Below are positions 987-59,087 of a stretch of DNA of 64,000 bases, piece by piece. Below the pieces are notes generated by a model, which was not told where the DNA came from, searched no databases, and was given only the letters and a program-made list of their open reading frames with translations. A program made the translations under genes and the position numbers. This DNA comes from Pirellulales bacterium (lineage in GTDB: Bacteria; Planctomycetota; Planctomycetia; Pirellulales; PALSA-1355). The stretch lies in contig JBFWOR010000005.1 of the NCBI GenBank assembly GCA_050250435.1, positions 170,300 to 234,299 of the forward strand, written 5' to 3'. Positions within the stretch are counted from its first letter, which is position 1. Every line of letters starts with the position of its first letter.

Positions 987-1945
987 ACCTTGTCCCTCGT
1001 GCGCGCGCCCAGCAATCCGGCCGGGCGAAACACCAGAATGGCAATCAGAATCACAAACACCAGCGCGCTCGTCCAGCGCTCGCCGACATAGCCCGAGCCG
1101 AACGACCGAGCCAGCCCGATGACGAGTCCGCCGAGCACGGCGCCGGGAATATTGCCGATGCCGCCCAGCACGGCGGCGGTGAAAGCGTACAGCCCGTTTT
1201 GAAACCCCATCTGGTAGCTGACGGTGTTGATGTACAGCCCATAGATGACGCTGGCCGCGCCGGCCAGGGCGCCGCCAAGTGCGAACGTGGCGGCGATCAC
1301 GCGGTCGACGTTGATGCCCATGAGCTGCGCCGCGACGGGATCTTGAGCGGTGGCGCGCATCGCCTTGCCCAGGCGCGTCGTTTTAACGAACACGGTCAGC
1401 GCGATCATGATCGGCACGGTAACGGCCACCACCAGCAGATCCTTATAAGTGATGCCCAAGCGGCTCTCTTCGCCCAGCGGACTCGCGTTCGAGACCAGGT
1501 TCGGAAAATCGCGGTCGGCGGCGCCGCCCCACAAGAGGCCCACGTTCATCAGCACAAAAGACACGCCGATGGCCGACACCAACGGCGCCAATTTGGGCGC
1601 GCGACGCAACGGCTTGTAGACCAGCCGATCGATCGACACGTTGACCGCTGCGCAAAACAGCGGCACTACGAGCATCATGCAAGCAATTCCCAGCCAGACG
1701 GCCGTAGGCGCGGCATCGGCGAGCCCGAACCACTCGGCCATGGCCAGCGCCAGAAAGGCGCCCAGCATGAACACGTCGCCGTGAGCGAAGTTAATCAGCT
1801 CGATGATCCCGTAGACCATCGTGTAGCCCAGCGCGATCAAGGCGAACAGGGCGCCGTTGGTCAGGCCGATCAGCGCATATTGCAGGAACGCTTGCCACAA
1901 ATCCGGCGACTCGGCCTGGGCCACGAGCAAGGGCATCGTCGTCAA
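983..1945 (-). CDS. livH: Branched-chain amino acid ABC transporter permease, LivH-type
   Basis: The 320-aa ORF contains LQYALIGLTNGALFALIALGYTMVYGIIELINFAHGDVFMLGAF, typical of the LivH family. It is translationally coupled to livM. Confidence 0.9.
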   Translation of the reverse strand: MTTMPLLVAQAESPDLWQAFLQYALIGLTNGALFALIALGYTMVYGIIELINFAHGDVFMLGAFLALAMAEWFGLADAAPTAVWLGIACMMLVVPLFCAAVNVSIDRLVYKPLRRAPKLAPLVSAIGVSFVLMNVGLLWGGAADRDFPNLVSNASPLGEESRLGITYKDLLVVAVTVPIMIALTVFVKTTRLGKAMRATAQDPVAAQLMGINVDRVIAATFALGGALAGAASVIYGLYINTVSYQMGFQNGLYAFTAAVLGGIGNIPGAVLGGLVIGLARSFGSGYVGERWTSALVFVILIAILVFRPAGLLGARTRDKV

Positions 1946-2005
1946 CGGCGGTCTCCCTGTCGCGTCGGCCGCGCGCGCAGCCGGACGCCAGGCCCGGCCG
2001 TGGCA

Positions 2006-3220
2006 CTACTGCCCCAGGATTTTGACAAATTCGAAATGGCCATTGTGCACGGTACTGCCGGTGACGGTGGACAATGTGCTGTCGCCGTTTTTGTCGAACG
2101 ACCAGGTGCCGAGCGCGCCCTGATCGAAGTCCTTGATCTCCTGGCACGCCTTGAGAATCGCCGCGCGATCCTTGACGCCGGCGCGGCGAATGGCCTCGAT
2201 GGCTGCCTTGGCCGCCTCGTAGCCGTAGATGGCGTAGCCTTCCGGCAGCCCGCCGAATTGCTGCTGATACTTGTCGACGAACTTCTTGCCGGGTCCGGTC
2301 AGCTTATCGGGCGGCATACCGCCGAACGTGATGAAGCAGCGGTCGTTGAGGTTCTCCGCACCGGCAGATTTGATGAACGCCTCTTCATAGCACGCGTCGG
2401 GCACCATGAGCTTGCTATCCAAGCCGGCGGCCACCAGGTCTTTGGCGATCTGCCCGCCCTTGGATTGTGTGGTGCCGCCGAAGTAGACCAGATCCGGCTT
2501 GAGGCCTTTGATCGTAGCCATCAGCGGCTTGAATTCCTGGGCCTTCACGTCGATGCTCTCGTGCCCGACCACCTCGATGCCCAAATCCTGGCAGGCCTCG
2601 ATGAACAGCGTGGCGATGCCTTTGCCGTAGACTTCGTTGTCGTCCAGCACGTACACGCGCTGCACGCCCATTTCCTTGGCCCACAGCGCGCCCAGCGGCG
2701 CCTGCTGATCATCGGTCGGCACGATGCGCAAATAATTGATATGGCCCGTGGGGCGATAGATGTCGGGCTCACCGGGATCGCCTTTGCCGGGCTTGGTCAG
2801 GCCGGGCCAGGTGTTGGCGGGGCTGATCATCAGCAACCCGGCCTTGTTCAAGATGGGCATCGAGATCTTGGCGGCACCCGAGTTGTAGGTGCCCAGGTAC
2901 ACCATCACGTCCGGATCGTGTACGGCCCGGTTGGCATTAGCCGTTTCGGCCTCGGCCGTCCACTGACCGGCACCCGCCGTGGCGTCGTCCCAGTCGGCGT
3001 ACTCGATCTCGAATGGCCCGGCTTTGTAGCCGGCTTCTTCCAGGGCGATCTTGATGCCGTTGACGATCGTGTCGGTCTGGGCCTTGGCGCTACCCGTGCG
3101 CGGGAGACTGGAAACGACTTTGACCCGATTCGGATCGCCGCCCGACGGAATTCCCCAGCCGACCACCGTCAGCACTGCCAGCATGGCAATCAGTAGCAAA
3201 GGGGCGACGTAACGTGCCAT
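2006..3220 (-). CDS. ABC transporter substrate-binding protein, Leu/Ile/Val-binding (type I periplasmic binding protein) family
   Basis: 404-aa ORF with an N-terminal hydrophobic anchor/signal. It has LivK/LivJ-like motifs (GTYNSGAAKISMPILNKAGLLMISPANTWPGLT) and sits directly upstream of livH on the same strand. Confidence 0.85.
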   Translation of the reverse strand: MARYVAPLLLIAMLAVLTVVGWGIPSGGDPNRVKVVSSLPRTGSAKAQTDTIVNGIKIALEEAGYKAGPFEIEYADWDDATAGAGQWTAEAETANANRAVHDPDVMVYLGTYNSGAAKISMPILNKAGLLMISPANTWPGLTKPGKGDPGEPDIYRPTGHINYLRIVPTDDQQAPLGALWAKEMGVQRVYVLDDNEVYGKGIATLFIEACQDLGIEVVGHESIDVKAQEFKPLMATIKGLKPDLVYFGGTTQSKGGQIAKDLVAAGLDSKLMVPDACYEEAFIKSAGAENLNDRCFITFGGMPPDKLTGPGKKFVDKYQQQFGGLPEGYAIYGYEAAKAAIEAIRRAGVKDRAAILKACQEIKDFDQGALGTWSFDKNGDSTLSTVTGSTVHNGHFEFVKILGQ

Positions 3221-3488
3221 GCGCGTTCACAGGGGCAATTCGGGGAACCTTGGGTACGAGCCGTGCGAATTGTAGCGCAAGCAAAAATGCACGTCAATTC
3301 GGCGCCACTGCCGCACAGCAAACCCGCTGCAACGCCGCAAACAGCGCGGACGCGTTCATCCGCGGCCGCGATCTTGACGCGCCGGCGGACCTTCGAGTAC
3401 CGTTCGCCGCCTCGCGCCCAAGGCCGGCGGATCGTCGGCCGTGCGCGATCGACCAAACACTTCATTACCAGCCGCCCCCAGGTGGATT

Positions 3489-4694
3489 ATGAGCGTTGCA
3501 CCCCTCGAACATCGTTGGGCCACTCCGCCGGTGCCGCCGGCCTTTGTCTCCACACAGCCGACGCCCGTTCCGTTGCTCGACGTGTCGCGTCAGTATCACG
3601 CGATTCGCGATGACGTGGCCAAGGCGTTGGCGCGGGTGTGCGACTCCGGCCGTTTTATCCTCGGGCCGGATTGTGAGGAGCTCGAACGCCGACTGGCCGA
3701 ATACTGCCAGGTGTCCCACGCCGTGGGATGCGCCTCGGGCAGTGACGCGCTGGTGTTGGCGCTCATGGCGCTTGGCGTCGGACCGGGCGACGAAGTGCTC
3801 ATGCCCAGCTACACGTTTTTCGCCACCGCCAGTGCGGCCTGGCGGTTGGGCGCCAAGCCGGTGTTCGTTGACATCGACCCGGTGACGTACAACATCGATC
3901 CCAACAAGGTCGAAGTGCTAATCTCGCCGGCCACCAAGGCGATCCTGCCGGTGCACTTGTACGGCCAGTGTGCCGACATGCGGGCGCTGGAAACGATTGC
4001 TCGCACGCACAAGGTGCCGCTGGTGGAAGATGCCTGCCAGGCCATAGGCGCGGAATTCGCCGGCCGTCGGGCGGGCAGCTGCAGCGCGATCGGCTGTTTC
4101 AGCTTCTATCCCACGAAGAATCTGGGCGGCTACGGCGACGGCGGATTGTTGACCACGCACGACGCCGCCCTGGCAGAGCAGCTGCGCCTGTTGCGTGGCC
4201 ACGGCATGCAGCCGCGTTACTATCACCAGGTGGTGGGCGTGAACAGCCGGCTCGATTCGCTGCAGGCGGCCGTGCTCAACGTCAAGCTTCCTCACCTCGA
4301 TCGTTGGACCACCGACCGGCAGACGAATGCTCAGCGCTACCACGAGCTATTTGCCGCGAACCGGCTGGAGCACTTGCTGGGCCTGCCGCACACGGCCCCG
4401 GGCCGCCGCCACGTGTGGAATCAATACATCATCCGCGTGCCGGACGGACGGCGCGACGCGTTGCGCGCGTATCTGGCGGAACGCAAAATCGGCACCGAGA
4501 TTTACTATCCCGTGCCGCTGCACTTGCAGGCCTGTTTTGCCGCGCTGGGCTACGAGCAGGGCAGCCTGCCGGAATCGGAGCGGGCGGCGCACGAAACGCT
4601 GGCGCTGCCAATCTTCCCCGAGCTGACCGCGGCCGAACAGCAAGTGGTGGTGCGCGAGATTGCCGCCTATTGGCACGGCCCACGTCTGGCCTAA
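3489..4694 (+). CDS. DegT/DnrJ/EryC1/StrS family PLP-dependent sugar aminotransferase
   Basis: The ORF 3441..4694 contains GPDCEELERRLAEYCQVSHAVGCASGSDALVLALMALGVGPGDEVLMPSYTFFATASA and FYPTKNLGGYGDGG (PLP-Lys region). The ATG at 3489 (MSVAPLEH) is preferred over the alternative start at 3441, but the start is uncertain. Confidence 0.85.
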   Translation: MSVAPLEHRWATPPVPPAFVSTQPTPVPLLDVSRQYHAIRDDVAKALARVCDSGRFILGPDCEELERRLAEYCQVSHAVGCASGSDALVLALMALGVGPGDEVLMPSYTFFATASAAWRLGAKPVFVDIDPVTYNIDPNKVEVLISPATKAILPVHLYGQCADMRALETIARTHKVPLVEDACQAIGAEFAGRRAGSCSAIGCFSFYPTKNLGGYGDGGLLTTHDAALAEQLRLLRGHGMQPRYYHQVVGVNSRLDSLQAAVLNVKLPHLDRWTTDRQTNAQRYHELFAANRLEHLLGLPHTAPGRRHVWNQYIIRVPDGRRDALRAYLAERKIGTEIYYPVPLHLQACFAALGYEQGSLPESERAAHETLALPIFPELTAAEQQVVVREIAAYWHGPRLA

Positions 4695-23992: not shown

Positions 23993-24979
23993 CTACGGCG
24001 TTTCGACCGCGCGGACTTCGAGCAGCTGCTTGCCGCTAGGACGCGGGCTGGCATGGCTGGGGGCGATTACGGCGTCGTGCAGGTGCAAGCCGGGACCCAC
24101 AACACCCTCGTCGTTGGTGTAGATGTGGTCGCGGCAGCCGCGCGCACGGCAAGTGGTGAGATACTCGACGTGCTGATCTTCGAAGAGCACGTTCTGGCCA
24201 CAGCCGCCGTGGTTCTGCGAGTGATACGGGGCCTCAGCGCTGGGCTGGTCGGCGGCCACCGCGTAGCGCACGCGGTGCAGGTTGCGCGGCGAATAGTACT
24301 TGCCGTTCGAGTAGAAGCCGAGGTTAAAACCCAGGCTGCCGCCCATCCGCTTGCGGACTTCTGCCAGTTGGGCGCCGCGCACCGCGTAGATTTCTTGTTC
24401 CGTGGGAATGCGGAACGCCTCGGGATTATCGGCCAGGTCCGACGCCGGGCAGATCAGCAGGTCCGAGCTGTCGAGCAGCCCCATGTCGCGAAGTTTCACC
24501 GCCACGATCCCCGCGGCCGCGCAGGGCCCCTCGGCCGGAACGTTCGGGTAGAAACCGCCATGGGCTTCGCTGTAAGTGTTCAGAGCCATGCCGAAGCGCC
24601 GCAGGTTGTCCTGGCATTGGGTCACCCGGGCGGCGAAGCGGCTTTGGCTCACGGCCGGAAAAAAAAGCAAGGCCGCCGCGACGAAGATTCCCGCCGCGAC
24701 CACCATATCGGCCATCGACCATTGCCGCTGCGGCGCCGCGTAAGGCGTCGCCGGCGCCGCCAGCACGCGCGTCCGCTCGAATACGATCTGACAGGTGCGA
24801 TCGGCGAGCCCCAGCGGAGGCTCGTAGTGATTCCGATCCGCCGCCAGGGGCAGCAAACTATAGGACAATAAATCGAGCTCGCGTTGCAGTTGCGGATCGC
24901 GCTCGAGGTGGGCTTGCACTTGCTCGCGTTCGCCGGGCTCCAGCGCGTCAAGCAGGTATCCGATCAGTTGATCTCTCAT
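23993..24979 (-). CDS. Putative anti-sigma factor fused to a DUF1559 (H-X9-DG, pseudopilin-like) domain
   Basis: The start lies 9 nt after the ECF sigma stop. The N-terminus MRDQLIGYLLDALEPGEREQVQAHLERDPQLQRELDLL is anti-sigma-like but lacks Cys. The TM segment and following sequence (VVAAGIFVAAALLFFPAVSQSRFAARVTQCQDNLRRFGMALNTYSEAHGGFYP) and the C-terminal HSQNHGGCGQNVLFEDQHVEYL match the DUF1559 pattern. Confidence 0.7.
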   Translation of the reverse strand: MRDQLIGYLLDALEPGEREQVQAHLERDPQLQRELDLLSYSLLPLAADRNHYEPPLGLADRTCQIVFERTRVLAAPATPYAAPQRQWSMADMVVAAGIFVAAALLFFPAVSQSRFAARVTQCQDNLRRFGMALNTYSEAHGGFYPNVPAEGPCAAAGIVAVKLRDMGLLDSSDLLICPASDLADNPEAFRIPTEQEIYAVRGAQLAEVRKRMGGSLGFNLGFYSNGKYYSPRNLHRVRYAVAADQPSAEAPYHSQNHGGCGQNVLFEDQHVEYLTTCRARGCRDHIYTNDEGVVGPGLHLHDAVIAPSHASPRPSGKQLLEVRAVETP

Positions 24980-24988
24980 GGCGGGCGA

Positions 24989-25639
24989 TTACGGTTGGGA
25001 GGTTTCTTCGTTCTGCATCCAGGCCTCGTTCAGTTTCAAGATCGCCGAGTGGAGCCGGCTTTTCACCGTACCCACCGGGATGCTCAAAACGTCTGCCGCC
25101 TCTCTGTACTTCAGGCCTTGGTAATACACCAGATGGACCGCCTCGCGCAGCGAATCGGGCAATTGCTCAACCGCCTCGCGAATCCACTCGGTTTGTTGGC
25201 TGGCTTGGGCGCGATCCTCGGGACTTGGCTCCTTGCTTTCCAGCAGGCTCATCAACGAGCCCAACTCATCTTGTTCGTGATGCCGGGTATTTCGATCCAG
25301 GCTGACGCTGCGGTGCCGCTTGTTGCGGCGTTGCGCGTCGATCGCCTGGTTCGTCGCAATGGTGTATAGCCACGGCCGGAATTTCCGGCCCTCGTCAAAC
25401 TGGTCGCACTTCAGATGCACCTGCAGAAAGGTCGCCTGAAACGTATCTTCCGCCAGACTGGCGTCTCCCAGGTAGCGTCGCAAATAGCTGAACAACTCCC
25501 GCTCGTAGCGGTTGACCAACTCGGCAAACGCCAGCCGATCAGCGTGATCGCGGTAGGCCGACAGCAACGCTTCGTCGGACATTCCTGCCCGATCGGACGC
25601 TGCGGCCGTGGCCGGCGAGTGTCTGGTGGCCTTGTTCAT
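24989..25639 (-). CDS. ECF-type RNA polymerase sigma-70 factor
   Basis: 216-aa ORF with region 2 (FQATFLQVHLKCDQFDEGRKFRPWLYTIATNQAIDAQRR) and region 4 (LREAVHLVYYQGLKYREAADVLSIPVGTVKSRLHSAILKL). Confidence 0.92.
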   Translation of the reverse strand: MNKATRHSPATAAASDRAGMSDEALLSAYRDHADRLAFAELVNRYERELFSYLRRYLGDASLAEDTFQATFLQVHLKCDQFDEGRKFRPWLYTIATNQAIDAQRRNKRHRSVSLDRNTRHHEQDELGSLMSLLESKEPSPEDRAQASQQTEWIREAVEQLPDSLREAVHLVYYQGLKYREAADVLSIPVGTVKSRLHSAILKLNEAWMQNEETSQP

Positions 25640-26084
25640 TTCTCAATACGGGCTGGTCGGCACCGGAGTTCGCCATCCGGGAGCCGAAAAAGCCGGCAAT
25701 TTTTCACCGCGGCCGGCCGCGCGCGGTTCTGACGCATTGTATCAGACCGTGCCGCGCCGCACGCCGTCACCCGGCGGGAGCCGGCCGGCTGTCACCGGCC
25801 GCCTCAACCTACTCTACACTAGGACCTTAAGTCCACTCTGCACAGATCCGGGGAATTCGCTATAATCGCGCCGCCTATGACCATCGGGAGGAGGTCGCAG
25901 GCCGGTTGAAGCTCGCGGGCGCGGCGGCCACGCCGTCGCCGCTGCGGCCTCAACCCCTTCTCTCCCGCGGGACGCGTGAGGAGGCACCCATGCATAACCG
26001 CAAGCAAGATCGAACCATGCGCGCCCGGAAGCACGATGCCGCCCGCGGCCGCGCTGGTCACAGCGTCACAGGAGGGAGAGACGT

Positions 26085-54299: not shown

Positions 54300-56707
<2,408 letters not shown>

Positions 56708-56890
56708 GATTGGAACGACTGCGATGCGGCCCCCTCCGGAGAGTTATCGGGATACAAGCGGGATTTCCCCAGGGAATGACCGCCCCAAAGCCGGCTTGTG
56801 GCGGCTCGGACCGGTCGCTACCCTATCGCCCCGCTCGTAGCCGCTGGCCCAGCGCTTTGAACCGTCGCCAGCCGAAATGCGTATAATGCA

Positions 56891-57328
56891 ATGATGAACA
56901 TTGCGGCAACTTTAGCGACCTGGCTCTGTATGGCACTGGTGGCCATGCCGATGACTCCTTGCGCGCTGTTGCCGCGCGTCTGCGTGCTGGCGTTTCCCGC
57001 AACAACGTCAGACGCCAACGCTGAGACCTCGGGTGATCAGACCCCCGTGGCTCATTCCTGTTGCCGCGAAGCGGCGCCGCGCTGTGATCTGGCCGAAGGC
57101 GATGCCCAAACGCATCCTCAGCCGGACAAACCCTGCCCGCGCGGCTGCTGCCGGCTGGTGCCCATTGCACCAACGGTGGACAAGGTGGTCGTGGCGCATT
57201 CGCCCCTGGTGACGGACTATGTGCCGTGCCTGGCGGATGCCGTCGGCGAATGGAATCTCGCACCGGCGCAGGAGCCGCAGCTAGCGGCCGAGACGTTGCA
57301 CGCTCTCTCCTGCCTGTGGCGTTGCTGA
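56891..57328 (+). CDS. Small exported/anchored Cys-containing protein, hypothetical
   Basis: 145-aa ORF with a hydrophobic N-terminus MMNIAATLATWLCMALVAMPM. It has 12 Cys including HSCC and PRGCC, and the C-terminus is LHALSCLWRC. It lies directly upstream of the CC-doublet protein on the same strand. Confidence 0.45.
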   Translation: MMNIAATLATWLCMALVAMPMTPCALLPRVCVLAFPATTSDANAETSGDQTPVAHSCCREAAPRCDLAEGDAQTHPQPDKPCPRGCCRLVPIAPTVDKVVVAHSPLVTDYVPCLADAVGEWNLAPAQEPQLAAETLHALSCLWRC

Positions 57329-57436
57329 TCGCTACGCGCTCTTGATCTGTGCCATGCTGCGCGCAGATTTCCGGGCGCCGAGCAGACGAACGTCGTGATT
57401 CAAAGTTTTGAGTTTCATCAGGCAAGGAGACTGTAC

Positions 57437-58147
57437 ATGTATTCCATGTTTTTCAAGTCGGCCGCCGCGCTCATGCTGGGCGTGGGGGCGTTGGTCGCTG
57501 CCAGCGGCGCTGCCGCCGACAATGCGACCAAGGACGATGCGACCAAGGACACCGCCACCAAGGCCAAGAGCTGTTGTGAGGCCAAACTCGCCTGCTGCGA
57601 CGCCAAGCGCGCCTGCTGCACCGACGAGACCAAGGCGGCCTGCTGCGCCCAGGGCATGACCTGTTGCAAGAACAACCAGGCATGCTGCGACAAGGCGTCG
57701 CAATGCTGCATCGACGGCAAGGATTGCTGCCAGGAAGGCAAAGATTGCTGCGGCAAGAAGGGCGAAGTGAAGACGGCCGCCTTGAGCGACAAGCCGGCTT
57801 GCTGCAAAGCGGCGGCTGCAGTGCTCAACGTAACGACCGCCGACACGGGCGCAGCGGCAGCCAAAAGCTGCTGTGAAGCCAAGCTCGCTTGCTGCGACGC
57901 GAAGCGCGCCTGTTGCACGGACGAGCCCAAGGCGGCCTGCTGCGCCCAGGGCATGACCTGTTGCAAGAACAATCAGGCATGCTGCGACAAGGCGCCGCAA
58001 TGCTGCATCGACGGCAAGGATTGCTGCCAGGAAGGCAAAGCCTGCTGCGACAAGAAAGGGGAAACCAAGACGGCCGAGGCCGCCAAGAACCCCTGCTGTG
58101 CCAAAGGCGCAGTCCGCGTAGCAGCTGAGCCGAAGGTCGTGCGCTAA
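57437..58147 (+). CDS. Secreted cysteine-doublet (CC) repeat protein, function unknown
   Basis: ATG 57437 lies 6 nt after AAGGAGA (57424-57430), and the signal peptide is MYSMFFKSAAALMLGVGALVAASGAAA. The mature part has 20 CC doublets and no single Cys, mostly with CC-x5-CC spacing. A strong terminator follows the gene. Confidence 0.7.
   Translation: MYSMFFKSAAALMLGVGALVAASGAAADNATKDDATKDTATKAKSCCEAKLACCDAKRACCTDETKAACCAQGMTCCKNNQACCDKASQCCIDGKDCCQEGKDCCGKKGEVKTAALSDKPACCKAAAAVLNVTTADTGAAAAKSCCEAKLACCDAKRACCTDEPKAACCAQGMTCCKNNQACCDKAPQCCIDGKDCCQEGKACCDKKGETKTAEAAKNPCCAKGAVRVAAEPKVVR
57566..58076 (+). repeat. In-frame tandem duplication inside the CC-repeat gene (offset 297 bp = 99 codons)
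   Basis: Copy 1 (57566-57779) and copy 2 (57863-58076) align without gaps. By eye there are roughly 20 mismatches in about 214 nt, including two identical stretches of more than 40 nt. Confidence 0.85.
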
Positions 58148-58176
58148 CGCGCGGCGATTGACTCGGTAGATTTTCA

Positions 58177-58220
58177 AGGCACGCGGTGGCTCACTGGGGC
58201 CGCCGCGTGCCTGTTTTGTT
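58177..58220 (+). terminator. Rho-independent terminator after the CC-repeat gene
   Basis: The stem is AGGCACGCGGTGGC (58177-58190) / GCCGCCGCGTGCCT (58199-58212), with 13 Watson-Crick pairs plus one G-U. The loop is TCACTGG, followed by GTTTTGTT. Confidence 0.7.
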
Positions 58221-58222
58221 GA

Positions 58223-58268
58223 GCGCCGGGTGTCACTGCTAACATCGCGCCGGGTGTCAACTGCTAAC
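58223..58268. repeat. Two adjacent ~21-bp direct repeats GCGCCGGGTGTCA(A)CTGCTAAC
   Basis: Copies at 58223-58243 and 58247-58268 differ by one inserted A. The second copy also forms TGTCAAC-N9-GTTGACA with 58271-58277. The repeats lie between convergent genes. Confidence 0.7.
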
Positions 58269-58322
58269 TTGTTGACAGTGCCGCTCGCAGAATCAGCCCT
58301 GCCGGGCAAGCCAGCCGATAAC

Positions 58323-59087
58323 TCACGACGCCGTCGCGCCGCCGTCGATCACGATCACCTGGCCGGTGACGTACGACGCCTCGTCTGACGCCAAATACAG
58401 CGCCGCAAAGCCGATCTCGTCCGGCTGGCCCAGGTGCTTAATCGGCTGCGTGGCTTCCAGCCGCGCCATGTGCTTCTCGTTCTTCCAGAAGAACTCGCTG
58501 AAGTCCGTCTGGATCAGCCCCGGTGCGATGGCGTTGACGCGCACGTTCTTGGGACCGAATTCCACGGCCCAGGTGCGCGTCATCATGATCAAGCCGGCCT
58601 TGGTAAAGCTGTAGAGCAAACCGCCTGGTTGCGGACGCAGGCCGGCAATCGAAGCGATGTTGATCACCGAGCCGCCGCCGCGCTCAATCATTTTAGGCAC
58701 GGTCAGCCGCACCAGCCGCATGGCCGCCTTGATATTGACGTCAACCATCTTGTCGACCATCTCGTCGCTCACTTCGAGCGACGGACCCTGGCCGATGTTC
58801 GTGGCGCTATTGTTGACCAGAATATCGATCGGTCCGAGTTCTTTCTCGATTGTTGCGACGACGCTTTGCAATTGATCGGCCCGGCCGACGTGGCACTCCA
58901 TGGGCACGACCTTGCCTGGCAGCGCGGCGAACTCATCGGCCGTGGCTTTGAGGTTCTCCATCTTGCGGCTGGCGATGACGACGTTCGCGCCGGCCTCTGC
59001 GAGTTTCTTGGTGATGGCCTTGCCGATGCCGCGCCCGCCGCCGGTCACCAGGGCCGTTTTGCCTTTCAAACTGATCGCTGCGCTCAT
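58323..59087 (-). CDS. SDR family oxidoreductase (FabG-like)
   Basis: 254-aa ORF with the TGGGRGIG cofactor motif, NNSA, and a Y-x3-K region (YSFTKAGL). Confidence 0.9.

Follow-up and report, generated by a model that had tools for sequence, protein, structure and literature searches.

A conserved two-gene cassette for cysteine-rich, putatively exported proteins in a Pirellulales bacterium, with a candidate extracytoplasmic function sigma promoter next to its first start codon

Introduction

In the chlamydial omcA-omcB operon, a small Cys-rich lipoprotein (OmcA) is encoded together with a large Cys-rich envelope protein (OmcB), and Cys-rich metal buffers are represented by the bacterial metallothioneins and by the copper storage proteins Csp1 and Csp3. 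Cys-rich wall proteins with a YTV domain are also known in Planctomycetes (PMC8567305). Here, we analyse a locus from a Pirellulales bacterium (GenBank assembly GCA_050250435.1, contig JBFWOR010000005.1, positions 170,300 to 234,299 of the forward strand; this whole stretch of 64,000 nucleotides is called the window and is numbered from its first letter). A small gene for a Cys-containing protein, the companion gene, lies there directly upstream of a gene for a predicted secreted protein built of Cys-Cys doublets, the CC-repeat gene. The initial annotation of the locus had proposed that a TATAAT box abutting the companion start codon may give a leaderless mRNA, and that the two proteins may form a functional pair. 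Our analysis points to a conserved two-gene unit whose proximal promoter is probably of the extracytoplasmic function (ECF) sigma type.

Promoters of the SigW type, as known from Bacillus subtilis sigW, combine a -35 element (tg)aAAC with a -10 element CGTA, the latter conferring selectivity (PMC5758882). ECF sigma factors commonly autoregulate their own operons (PMC3616915), and shared promoter motifs constitute a standard route to ECF regulons (PMC3616915, PMC7826278). Leaderless mRNAs are common in Actinobacteria and Deinococcus; in Sinorhizobium meliloti 171 have been mapped, all of them AUG-initiated, and AUG is required for leaderless translation (PMC3616915). For Planctomycetes, comparative work has suggested few Shine-Dalgarno (SD) sequences and leaderless or RPS1-type signals (PMC5397173), and our literature searches retrieved no transcription-start mapping for this group.

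Results

The companion gene and its family

The open reading frame (ORF) at 56891..57328 of the forward strand, which carries all cassette features described below, encodes 145 aa with 12 Cys counted, including those of HSCC, PCPRGCC and the C-terminal LSCLWRC. When the sequence was re-read, these features, the hydrophobic N-terminus, the 108-nt gap to the CC-repeat gene and the coordinates were all present as initially annotated. The ORF opens with two in-frame ATGs (56891..56896). The first is specific to the window, and the second, at 56894 (ATG2), is the family-conserved one: all homologues align from it and, leaving aside the window-specific ATG, it is the 5'-most possible start in the window as in two other loci, L012 and L013, with in-frame stops or no start codons upstream (comparison loci are given L numbers throughout). 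A GTG lies directly 5' of the conserved ATG in L014. The gene proper thus spans 56894..57328 and encodes 144 aa, in agreement with the conserved columns of 26 representative clusters. In the NCBI annotation of the same genome, a Pirellulales metagenome-assembled genome (MAG), the protein (P0001, 127 aa) begins at Met19, which removes the conserved N-terminus. Since the residues upstream of Met19 are conserved and the homologues begin at ATG2, this shorter call is wrong.

An exhaustive profile search of 1.84 billion proteins recovered the 26 clusters (at 50% identity), with E<1e-10 for 11 of these. A word-index search returned three relatives, namely the same protein in NCBI, from Met19, and two metagenomic proteins of 68% and 44% identity. 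Homologues share 27-69% identity, measure 120-150 aa and keep the Cys motifs. Four motifs are conserved in the window protein, PCAL, (H)SCC (57053-57064), PCPRGCC (57131-57151) and LSCLWRC (57305-57325), and correspond in the family to an N-terminus ..W....LVALP.SPCAL, to SCC, to PC.R.CCR..P..P.VEK and to a C-terminal LQ.L(H/S)C(L/Q)WRC. The Cys pattern consists of one or two Cys ending the hydrophobic segment, SCC, C-x3-CC (CCC in distant members) and a C-terminal C-x3-C.

Frame, length, start and stop are kept in 13 lineages, down to 25-30% identity; ORF length is retained across the loci and, in the protein alignment, indels are multiples of three. Pairwise dN/dS ranges from 0.30 to 0.77 and is below 1 in every informative pair, the third codon position being the most variable, so that the codon-level signal is that of coding and not of non-coding DNA. 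Conservation and a coding signal were both found, and the companion is very probably a real gene in a conserved operon. Gene finders often fail on it: it is missed, truncated or called on the wrong strand in L002 (3333-3761), L003 (1299-1697), L018 (1965-2378), L020 (1999-2412) and L021 (579-1055) as well as in P0001, probably owing to the absent SD and the atypical composition.

Pairing with the CC-repeat gene

The CC-repeat gene (57437..58147, 236 aa) follows the companion directly in all 13 distinct readable loci, which represent at least four genomic contexts. In the loci reached through the companion (L001, L007/L012, L008, L009/L010, L011, L013 and L014), it comes after a spacer of 96-168 nt and is preceded by a GGAG-type SD, the contig of L001 holding no more of the downstream gene than its signal-peptide start. 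When we searched upstream of CC-protein homologues (L002, L003-L006 and the most distant ones, L018, L020 and L021), the companion was found each time, mostly uncalled by gene finders; in L018, a gene had been called on the opposite strand in its place. The flanking genes vary, with ligA in the window, L002 and L020, a methyltransferase gene in L003 and a PQQ propeller gene in L018. Because the flanks differ between lineages, the two genes and ~120 nt of upstream DNA move as one unit. In L002, a syntenic relative, both ligA and the companion contain frameshifts (1634-3761), which look like long-read assembly error rather than pseudogenisation.

The distribution of the cassette is that of a Pirellulales-type planctomycetal trait. 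A contig scan found it in 3 of 185,579 GTDB species genomes (3 MAGs), and an earlier contig scan with patterns from close relatives only had found none. No paralogue of either protein is present in the window, and the possibility that the two are paralogues of each other was rejected, as profile-profile comparison gave no relationship between them. Co-occurrence across relatives is strict. As to the functional pair proposed initially, the co-localisation on which it was based holds even for the most distant CC homologues, and lends strong comparative, though indirect, support to the idea that the proteins work together. Structure prediction and family searches brought no hint of the more specific role initially suggested, a chaperone or membrane anchor for a storage or structural partner.

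A putative ECF-type promoter beside the start codon

As initially annotated, a perfect TATAAT (56882-56887) is separated by 3 nt from ATG 56891 and by 6 nt from ATG2. Alignment of the upstream regions of 10 distinct loci revealed four invariant blocks in otherwise variable DNA: CTTG and TA...T, separated by N17, then GAAC and CGTA, again separated by N17, with the ATG 10-12 nt further on. The second pair defines the proximal promoter P2 (56857..56887), composed of (TT)GAAC at 56857-56862, a 17-nt spacer and CGTA at 56880-56883, which overlaps the TATAAT. The divergent locus L020 has GAAC-N16-CGTA-N9-ATG, and in 13 of 13 lineages the distance from the end of a -10-like element to the conserved ATG is 5-8 nt. 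The hexamer itself is perfect in the window, L002, L003, L009 and L011, and degenerate in L012 (TACAAA), L008 (TAGAAC) and L013 (TATTGC), the preceding CG being kept in all three. Since CGTA remains constant while TATAAT decays, a promoter for a SigW-like ECF sigma fits better than a sigma-70 -10 box. By its sequence, the conserved core would belong to the ECF class (-35 ending in AAC, spacer of 16-17 nt, -10 CGT(A/C)), and it appears closest to the SigW type. The proposal that the TATAAT acts as a promoter was therefore upheld for the position of the element, conserved beside the ATG, and had to be amended for its identity, the conserved core being GAAC-N17-CGTA.

Exact matches to GAAC-N17-CGTA number 17 in the 140 kb of collected loci, and 14 of these lie directly before a companion or a sigma ATG (see later in the text); the 64-kb window has 2, versus 0.85 expected. 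CGTATAAT occurs once in the window (0.14 expected), and TATAAT seven times versus 1.58 expected, an enrichment of ~4-fold in this GC-rich DNA. Only the P2 copy is within 50 nt of a start codon. The other six (5291, 9486, 13614, 25861, 33810 and 35123) stand 50-110 nt in front of candidate starts and probably belong to ordinary promoters; as they are all at least 50 nt away, the ATG-abutting arrangement is specific to the companion gene. Together with its conservation in independent relatives, this arrangement goes beyond chance.

The first pair of invariant blocks corresponds to a distal, sigma-70-like promoter, P1 (56796..56824), with TTGTGG at 56796-56801, a 17-nt spacer and TACCCT at 56819-56824; in the alignment it takes the form TTGnnn-N17-TAnnnT. 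From P1 to the GAAC of P2 the distance is 34 nt in the window versus about 8-10 nt in relatives, owing to a window-specific insertion of ~24 nt that the other nine aligned loci lack. A consensus sigma-70 scan of the region (spacer of 16-18 nt) returned no site.

Predicted leaderless or near-leaderless translation of the companion

The absence of an SD was confirmed, the 20 nt upstream of the ORF containing no GGAG-, GAGG- or AGGA-type sequence. The same is observed in the family: no companion locus has a usable SD, with no GGAG or GAGG in the 20 nt upstream and a sole AGGA (L008) lying 1 nt from the ATG, and the interval between the -10 element and the ATG is in every locus too short for one. 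The start codon is ATG in 13 of 13 loci. From the end of CGTA to this ATG there are 10-12 nt in the ten loci with the invariant blocks and 9 nt in L020 and L021; in the window, CGTA ends 7 nt before the first ATG.

In canonical ECF geometry, as in Escherichia coli sigma-E promoters, the last base of GTC or GTA stands at about -10. Applied to the companions, this geometry predicts a +1 located 1-3 nt before the conserved ATG, which is G56893 or A56894 in the window. With this predicted start, ATG 56894, and not 56891, would be the 5'-terminal codon. We consider it quite likely that an ECF-type promoter gives here a leaderless or near-leaderless mRNA. Of the leaderless claim, the -10-like element beside the ATG and the lack of an SD extend to 13 lineages; the probable start codon has shifted to ATG2, P1 would add a leadered transcript, and the comparative support for leaderless translation is strong but indirect.

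The resemblance to described leaderless mRNAs lies in the -10 directly before the AUG, the lack of an SD and the use of AUG, never GTG or TTG, in 13 of 13 loci (PMC3616915). Unlike them, the companion transcript is predicted from promoter geometry, its 5' untranslated region (5'-UTR) would measure 0-4 nt, and a second, leadered transcript from P1 is likely.

The same motif precedes an ECF sigma gene

The second GAAC-N17-CGTA of the window (25647..25671, reverse strand) ends 7 nt before the ATG (25639) of an ECF sigma gene (24989..25639, reverse strand; 216 aa; Pfam Sigma70_r2, Sigma70_r4_2 and Sigma70_ECF); the window has no other ORF of the sigma-70 family. This gene is followed on the same strand by an anti-sigma gene (23993..24979) with weak zf-HC2 and DUF1559 matches in Pfam, the planctomycete DUF1559 domain forming its C-terminal part, and a match to an NCBIfam anti-sigma model; literature searches found no description of an ECF group whose anti-sigma carries DUF1559. 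Of the sub-cutoff NCBIfam similarities of the sigma, SigW is one of the best. GAAC-N17-CGTA-N7-ATG is kept at three orthologous sigma loci, L015 (from the same genome as L002), L016 and L017. In the sigma loci CGTA is followed by TTGA, CTGA or GTGA, hence no TATAAT is formed. A distal TACAAT, ~90 nt upstream, accompanies the motif in all three orthologous loci. Counted from its upstream ATG, the sigma protein gains 19 aa at the N-terminus, which NCBI and other gene callers frequently omit (197 versus 216 aa).

The occurrence of one motif before both the companion gene and the sole ECF sigma gene makes the cassette most likely a target of that sigma, or of one with the same specificity; that this particular sigma regulates it has, judging from the shared motif, about an even chance. 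Like the SigW promoters of B. subtilis, the motif has a -35 ending in AAC, a 16-17-nt spacer and CGTA, and it stands before the sigma's own gene (PMC5758882). It differs in belonging to another phylum, in the sub-cutoff SigW likeness of the sigma, in the DUF1559 anti-sigma and in a promoter that abuts the start codon, and it is known here from sequence alone. A further GAAC-N16-CGTA-N10-ATG (24990-25013, reverse strand), at the 3' end of the sigma gene and before the anti-sigma ATG (24979), was rejected as a promoter: it is absent in L016 and L017, L015 has a similar site with N18 spacing, and the window copy is probably due to chance.

In its regulatory part, the cassette appears as a new example of two known things, a leaderless transcript and an ECF promoter of the autoregulatory type. 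Unusual is the position of this promoter, directly against the ATG at the sigma gene as well as at a putative target. GAAC-N17-CGTA becomes a candidate motif for a very widespread Pirellulales ECF sigma, with the cassette as first candidate regulon member beyond its own operon, and by comparative genomics the locus makes a clear case that ECF-driven expression in Planctomycetota may be leaderless or nearly so. Moreover, two linked protein families that are outside curated libraries and often missed by gene finders now have a testable regulatory context.

A model for the cassette and the evidence that weighs against it

We propose a self-contained cassette composed of the companion gene, the gene of the CC-repeat secreted protein and a terminator, preceded by a ~120-nt control region with the distal P1 and the proximal P2 that contains the TATAAT. 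Transcription from P2 would start at, or ~0-4 nt from, the conserved AUG (56894), so that the first cistron would be translated from a leaderless or quasi-leaderless mRNA and the second through a strong canonical AAGGAG. The cassette would most likely be an accessory member of the envelope-stress regulon of a SigW-like sigma. In the envelope, the companion may act on or with the CC protein by thiol chemistry, through metal-thiolate hand-over, disulfide exchange or tethering. Taken as a whole, this regulatory and architectural reading seems to us reasonably likely.

Several observations weigh against this model or parts of it. Two of the most distant loci, L018 and L021, keep GGTATAAT or CGTATAA beside the ATG and have no GAAC at N16-18. 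P1 would likely give a second transcript with a leader of 45-70 nt, and the leaderless mode is maybe not the sole or main one. The proximity of the 5' end to the AUG, within a few nt and making an SD impossible, is a prediction from promoter geometry. With the canonical geometry the sigma gene (N7) would have its +1 inside the ATG, and a single fixed geometry cannot make both genes exactly leaderless; either the start site is nearer to the promoter than in the canonical arrangement, or its position shifts by a few nt between the two genes. The sigma is assigned by identity of the motif, and another ECF sigma of similar specificity could act; in none of the loci read does the cassette have a sigma gene within 10 kb. 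The sigma has more than 7,500 hits at E<1e-20, the top 120 at 72% identity or more, and the cassette is rare by contrast. A dN/dS of up to 0.77 represents only moderate constraint, which fits short conserved motifs joined by fast-evolving linkers. Regarding function, Pfam and NCBIfam scans of both proteins and their family members gave nothing recurrent, no Pfam family coming up repeatedly for the 26 companions or for the 12 CC proteins at thresholds up to E<=10; a PDB profile search gave no match at E<=10, and the AlphaFold2 model of the companion is poor (mean pLDDT 56).

Alternative explanations

The TATAAT could instead serve the housekeeping sigma-70 as a -10 box, paired with TTGAAC as the -35; the leaderless mRNA would then be constitutive, and no ECF sigma would be involved. 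TTGAAC agrees with TTGACA at four of six positions, TATAAT is enriched in the window and the hexamer is perfect in five of the loci (see above). However, such a -35 and -10 would be 19 nt apart in every locus, more than the 16-18 nt of the consensus scan that found no promoter, the hexamer decays in L012, L008 and L013 whereas the CG before it is invariant, and the sigma gene has GAAC-N17-CGTA without TATAAT, so we regard this explanation as improbable. No better is the chance we give to transcription that starts only at P1, with GAAC...CGTA serving as an operator or 5'-UTR element and with SD-less initiation that is S1-dependent or relies on an unstructured leader. The key positions of P1 are invariant in the 10 aligned loci, and Planctomycetes generally use few SD sequences (PMC5397173). 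Against such a P1-only transcript, an identical GAAC-N17-CGTA stands at a comparable distance from the ATG of the ECF sigma gene in four genomes, which is a classical signature of autoregulation, and the 17-nt spacing is fixed while the sequence of the spacer varies, which is the behaviour of a two-box promoter and not of an RNA element.

At the protein level, the companion could serve as an anchor, of the lipoprotein type or in the membrane, for a structural envelope protein cross-linked by disulfides, like OmcA/OmcB or the YTV proteins, with no role of metals. The gene order, in which a larger exported protein rich in Cys comes after a small Cys protein with a hydrophobic N-terminus, is in accordance with this, as are the invariant Cys that ends the hydrophobic segment and the precedent of Cys-rich wall proteins in Planctomycetes (PMC8567305). 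It is nevertheless unlikely, given that there is no lipobox and Pro is invariant at -1, that neither family matches Pfam models, those of chlamydial OMP and YTV included, and that a presence in 3 of 185,579 GTDB species genomes is hard to square with a core wall component. The most sceptical explanation, that GC-rich DNA has produced a spurious companion ORF beside a genuine CC gene, could appeal to the gene callers that skip or truncate it in several assemblies and to a 200-aa antisense ORF (56823..57425) that overlaps it. It is refuted by the comparative data and scarcely credible: frame, length, start, stop and the invariant Cys motifs persist in the 13 lineages, indels respect the codon, dN/dS is below 1 and the antisense frame is broken in L001.

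Topology and possible role of the two proteins

The companion begins with an uncharged segment (aa 3-27, nt 56900-56974 in the window) that in the family covers 21-31 residues, with a Kyte-Doolittle value of 1.5-2.3 when averaged over 19 residues. K or R occurs within the first 8 residues in about half of the full-length companions; the window protein has none. In the AlphaFold2 model, built from a 26-sequence alignment, a helix at residues 3-17 is confident (pLDDT 82-89), another is seen at 135-143, and nothing else is structured. The N-terminal segment could act as a signal anchor or as a signal peptide that is cleaved off, and the unusual conservation of LVALP.SPCAL argues that it may do more than targeting. 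The rest, presumed extracytoplasmic, is predicted to be largely unstructured and bears vicinal-Cys motifs that resemble the CC doublets of the partner. Two assignments found no support in the sequence. Against a lipoprotein, the conserved P-[MLI]-[STA]-P-C, in which the Pro at -1 is invariant in close relatives, differs from the lipobox [LVI]-[ASTVI]-[GAS]-C. Against a zinc-binding anti-sigma factor (ZAS), the companion has no H-x3-C-x2-C motif and no zf-HC2 match, and no sigma gene was found within 10 kb in any locus.

The CC-repeat protein has a Sec-type signal peptide and 20 CC doublets in a strict 7-residue period, arranged in two tandem modules (one or two in relatives). Its 209 mature residues contain 40 Cys and are rich in Ala, Lys and Asp, with no His and no aromatics; the AlphaFold2 model shows no confident structure (mean pLDDT 51). 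Known Cys-rich Pfam families, among them metallothioneins, chlamydial OMPs, YTV and DUF2946, gave no significant match with either protein, and the CC-repeat protein matches no PDB family.

The pair resembles several described systems by analogy and is a member of none of them, all profile tests having failed. As in omcA-omcB, within the same PVC superphylum, the gene of a small, presumably N-terminally anchored Cys-rich protein lies 5' of that of a larger Cys-rich exported protein and is probably co-transcribed with it; unlike in that operon, there is neither sequence similarity nor a lipobox, and the partner is a low-complexity heptad CC repeat and not an OmcB-like fold. With metal buffers, the cassette shares the high Cys content of the CC protein and, in both proteins, vicinal or close Cys in chains predicted to be unstructured without ligand; it differs by the lack of detected homology and of metal-resistance genes nearby and by its putative exported or periplasmic location, and a metal role is suggested by analogy. 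Like the planctomycetal YTV-domain wall proteins (PMC8567305), the two proteins are Cys-rich, apparently exported and planctomycete-restricted, but they have no YTV motif or Pfam match, a far narrower distribution and, in the CC protein, the heptad repeat.

Shared vicinal-Cys chemistry and the presumed co-transcription and ECF control are the reasons why we tentatively regard the companion as a thiol or metal partner of the CC protein, placed close to the membrane. A more elaborate version is similarly speculative: in an ECF-controlled extracytoplasmic vicinal-Cys system, a membrane-tethered companion with three CC-type motifs might load, unload or disulfide-tether the secreted CC-heptad protein, envelope stress switching on the leaderless transcript. 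Whether such a system would amount to a previously undescribed periplasmic soft-metal/thiol buffer or a cross-linked envelope layer is just as doubtful; if the CC pair is indeed a metal/thiol buffer or an envelope cross-linker, it would bring new protein chemistry to the unusual planctomycete envelope.

Other features of the locus

The intergenic spacer (57329..57436) is devoid of an intrinsic terminator and carries the SD of the CC-repeat gene (AAGGAG, 57424-57429). Directly after the companion stop codon, a GC-rich hairpin extends over ~57331-57383; its covariation in RNAalifold is weak, and we make no claim of a functional RNA element. A conserved AACGTCG(TT) block, an imperfect 9-bp palindrome, is located at ~57390-57400, ~45 nt before the CC-gene ATG. 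The hairpin or this block could act as attenuator, stabiliser or operator. An Rfam search of 56600-58350 gave no match above threshold; the proteobacterial sRNA sX6 (58044-58228, forward strand), with 28.9 bits against a gathering score of 40 and an overlap with the end of the CC gene and the terminator, was dismissed as chance. Finally, a strong intrinsic terminator (58177..58212), formed by a 16-bp stem followed by a T-run, closes the two-gene unit.

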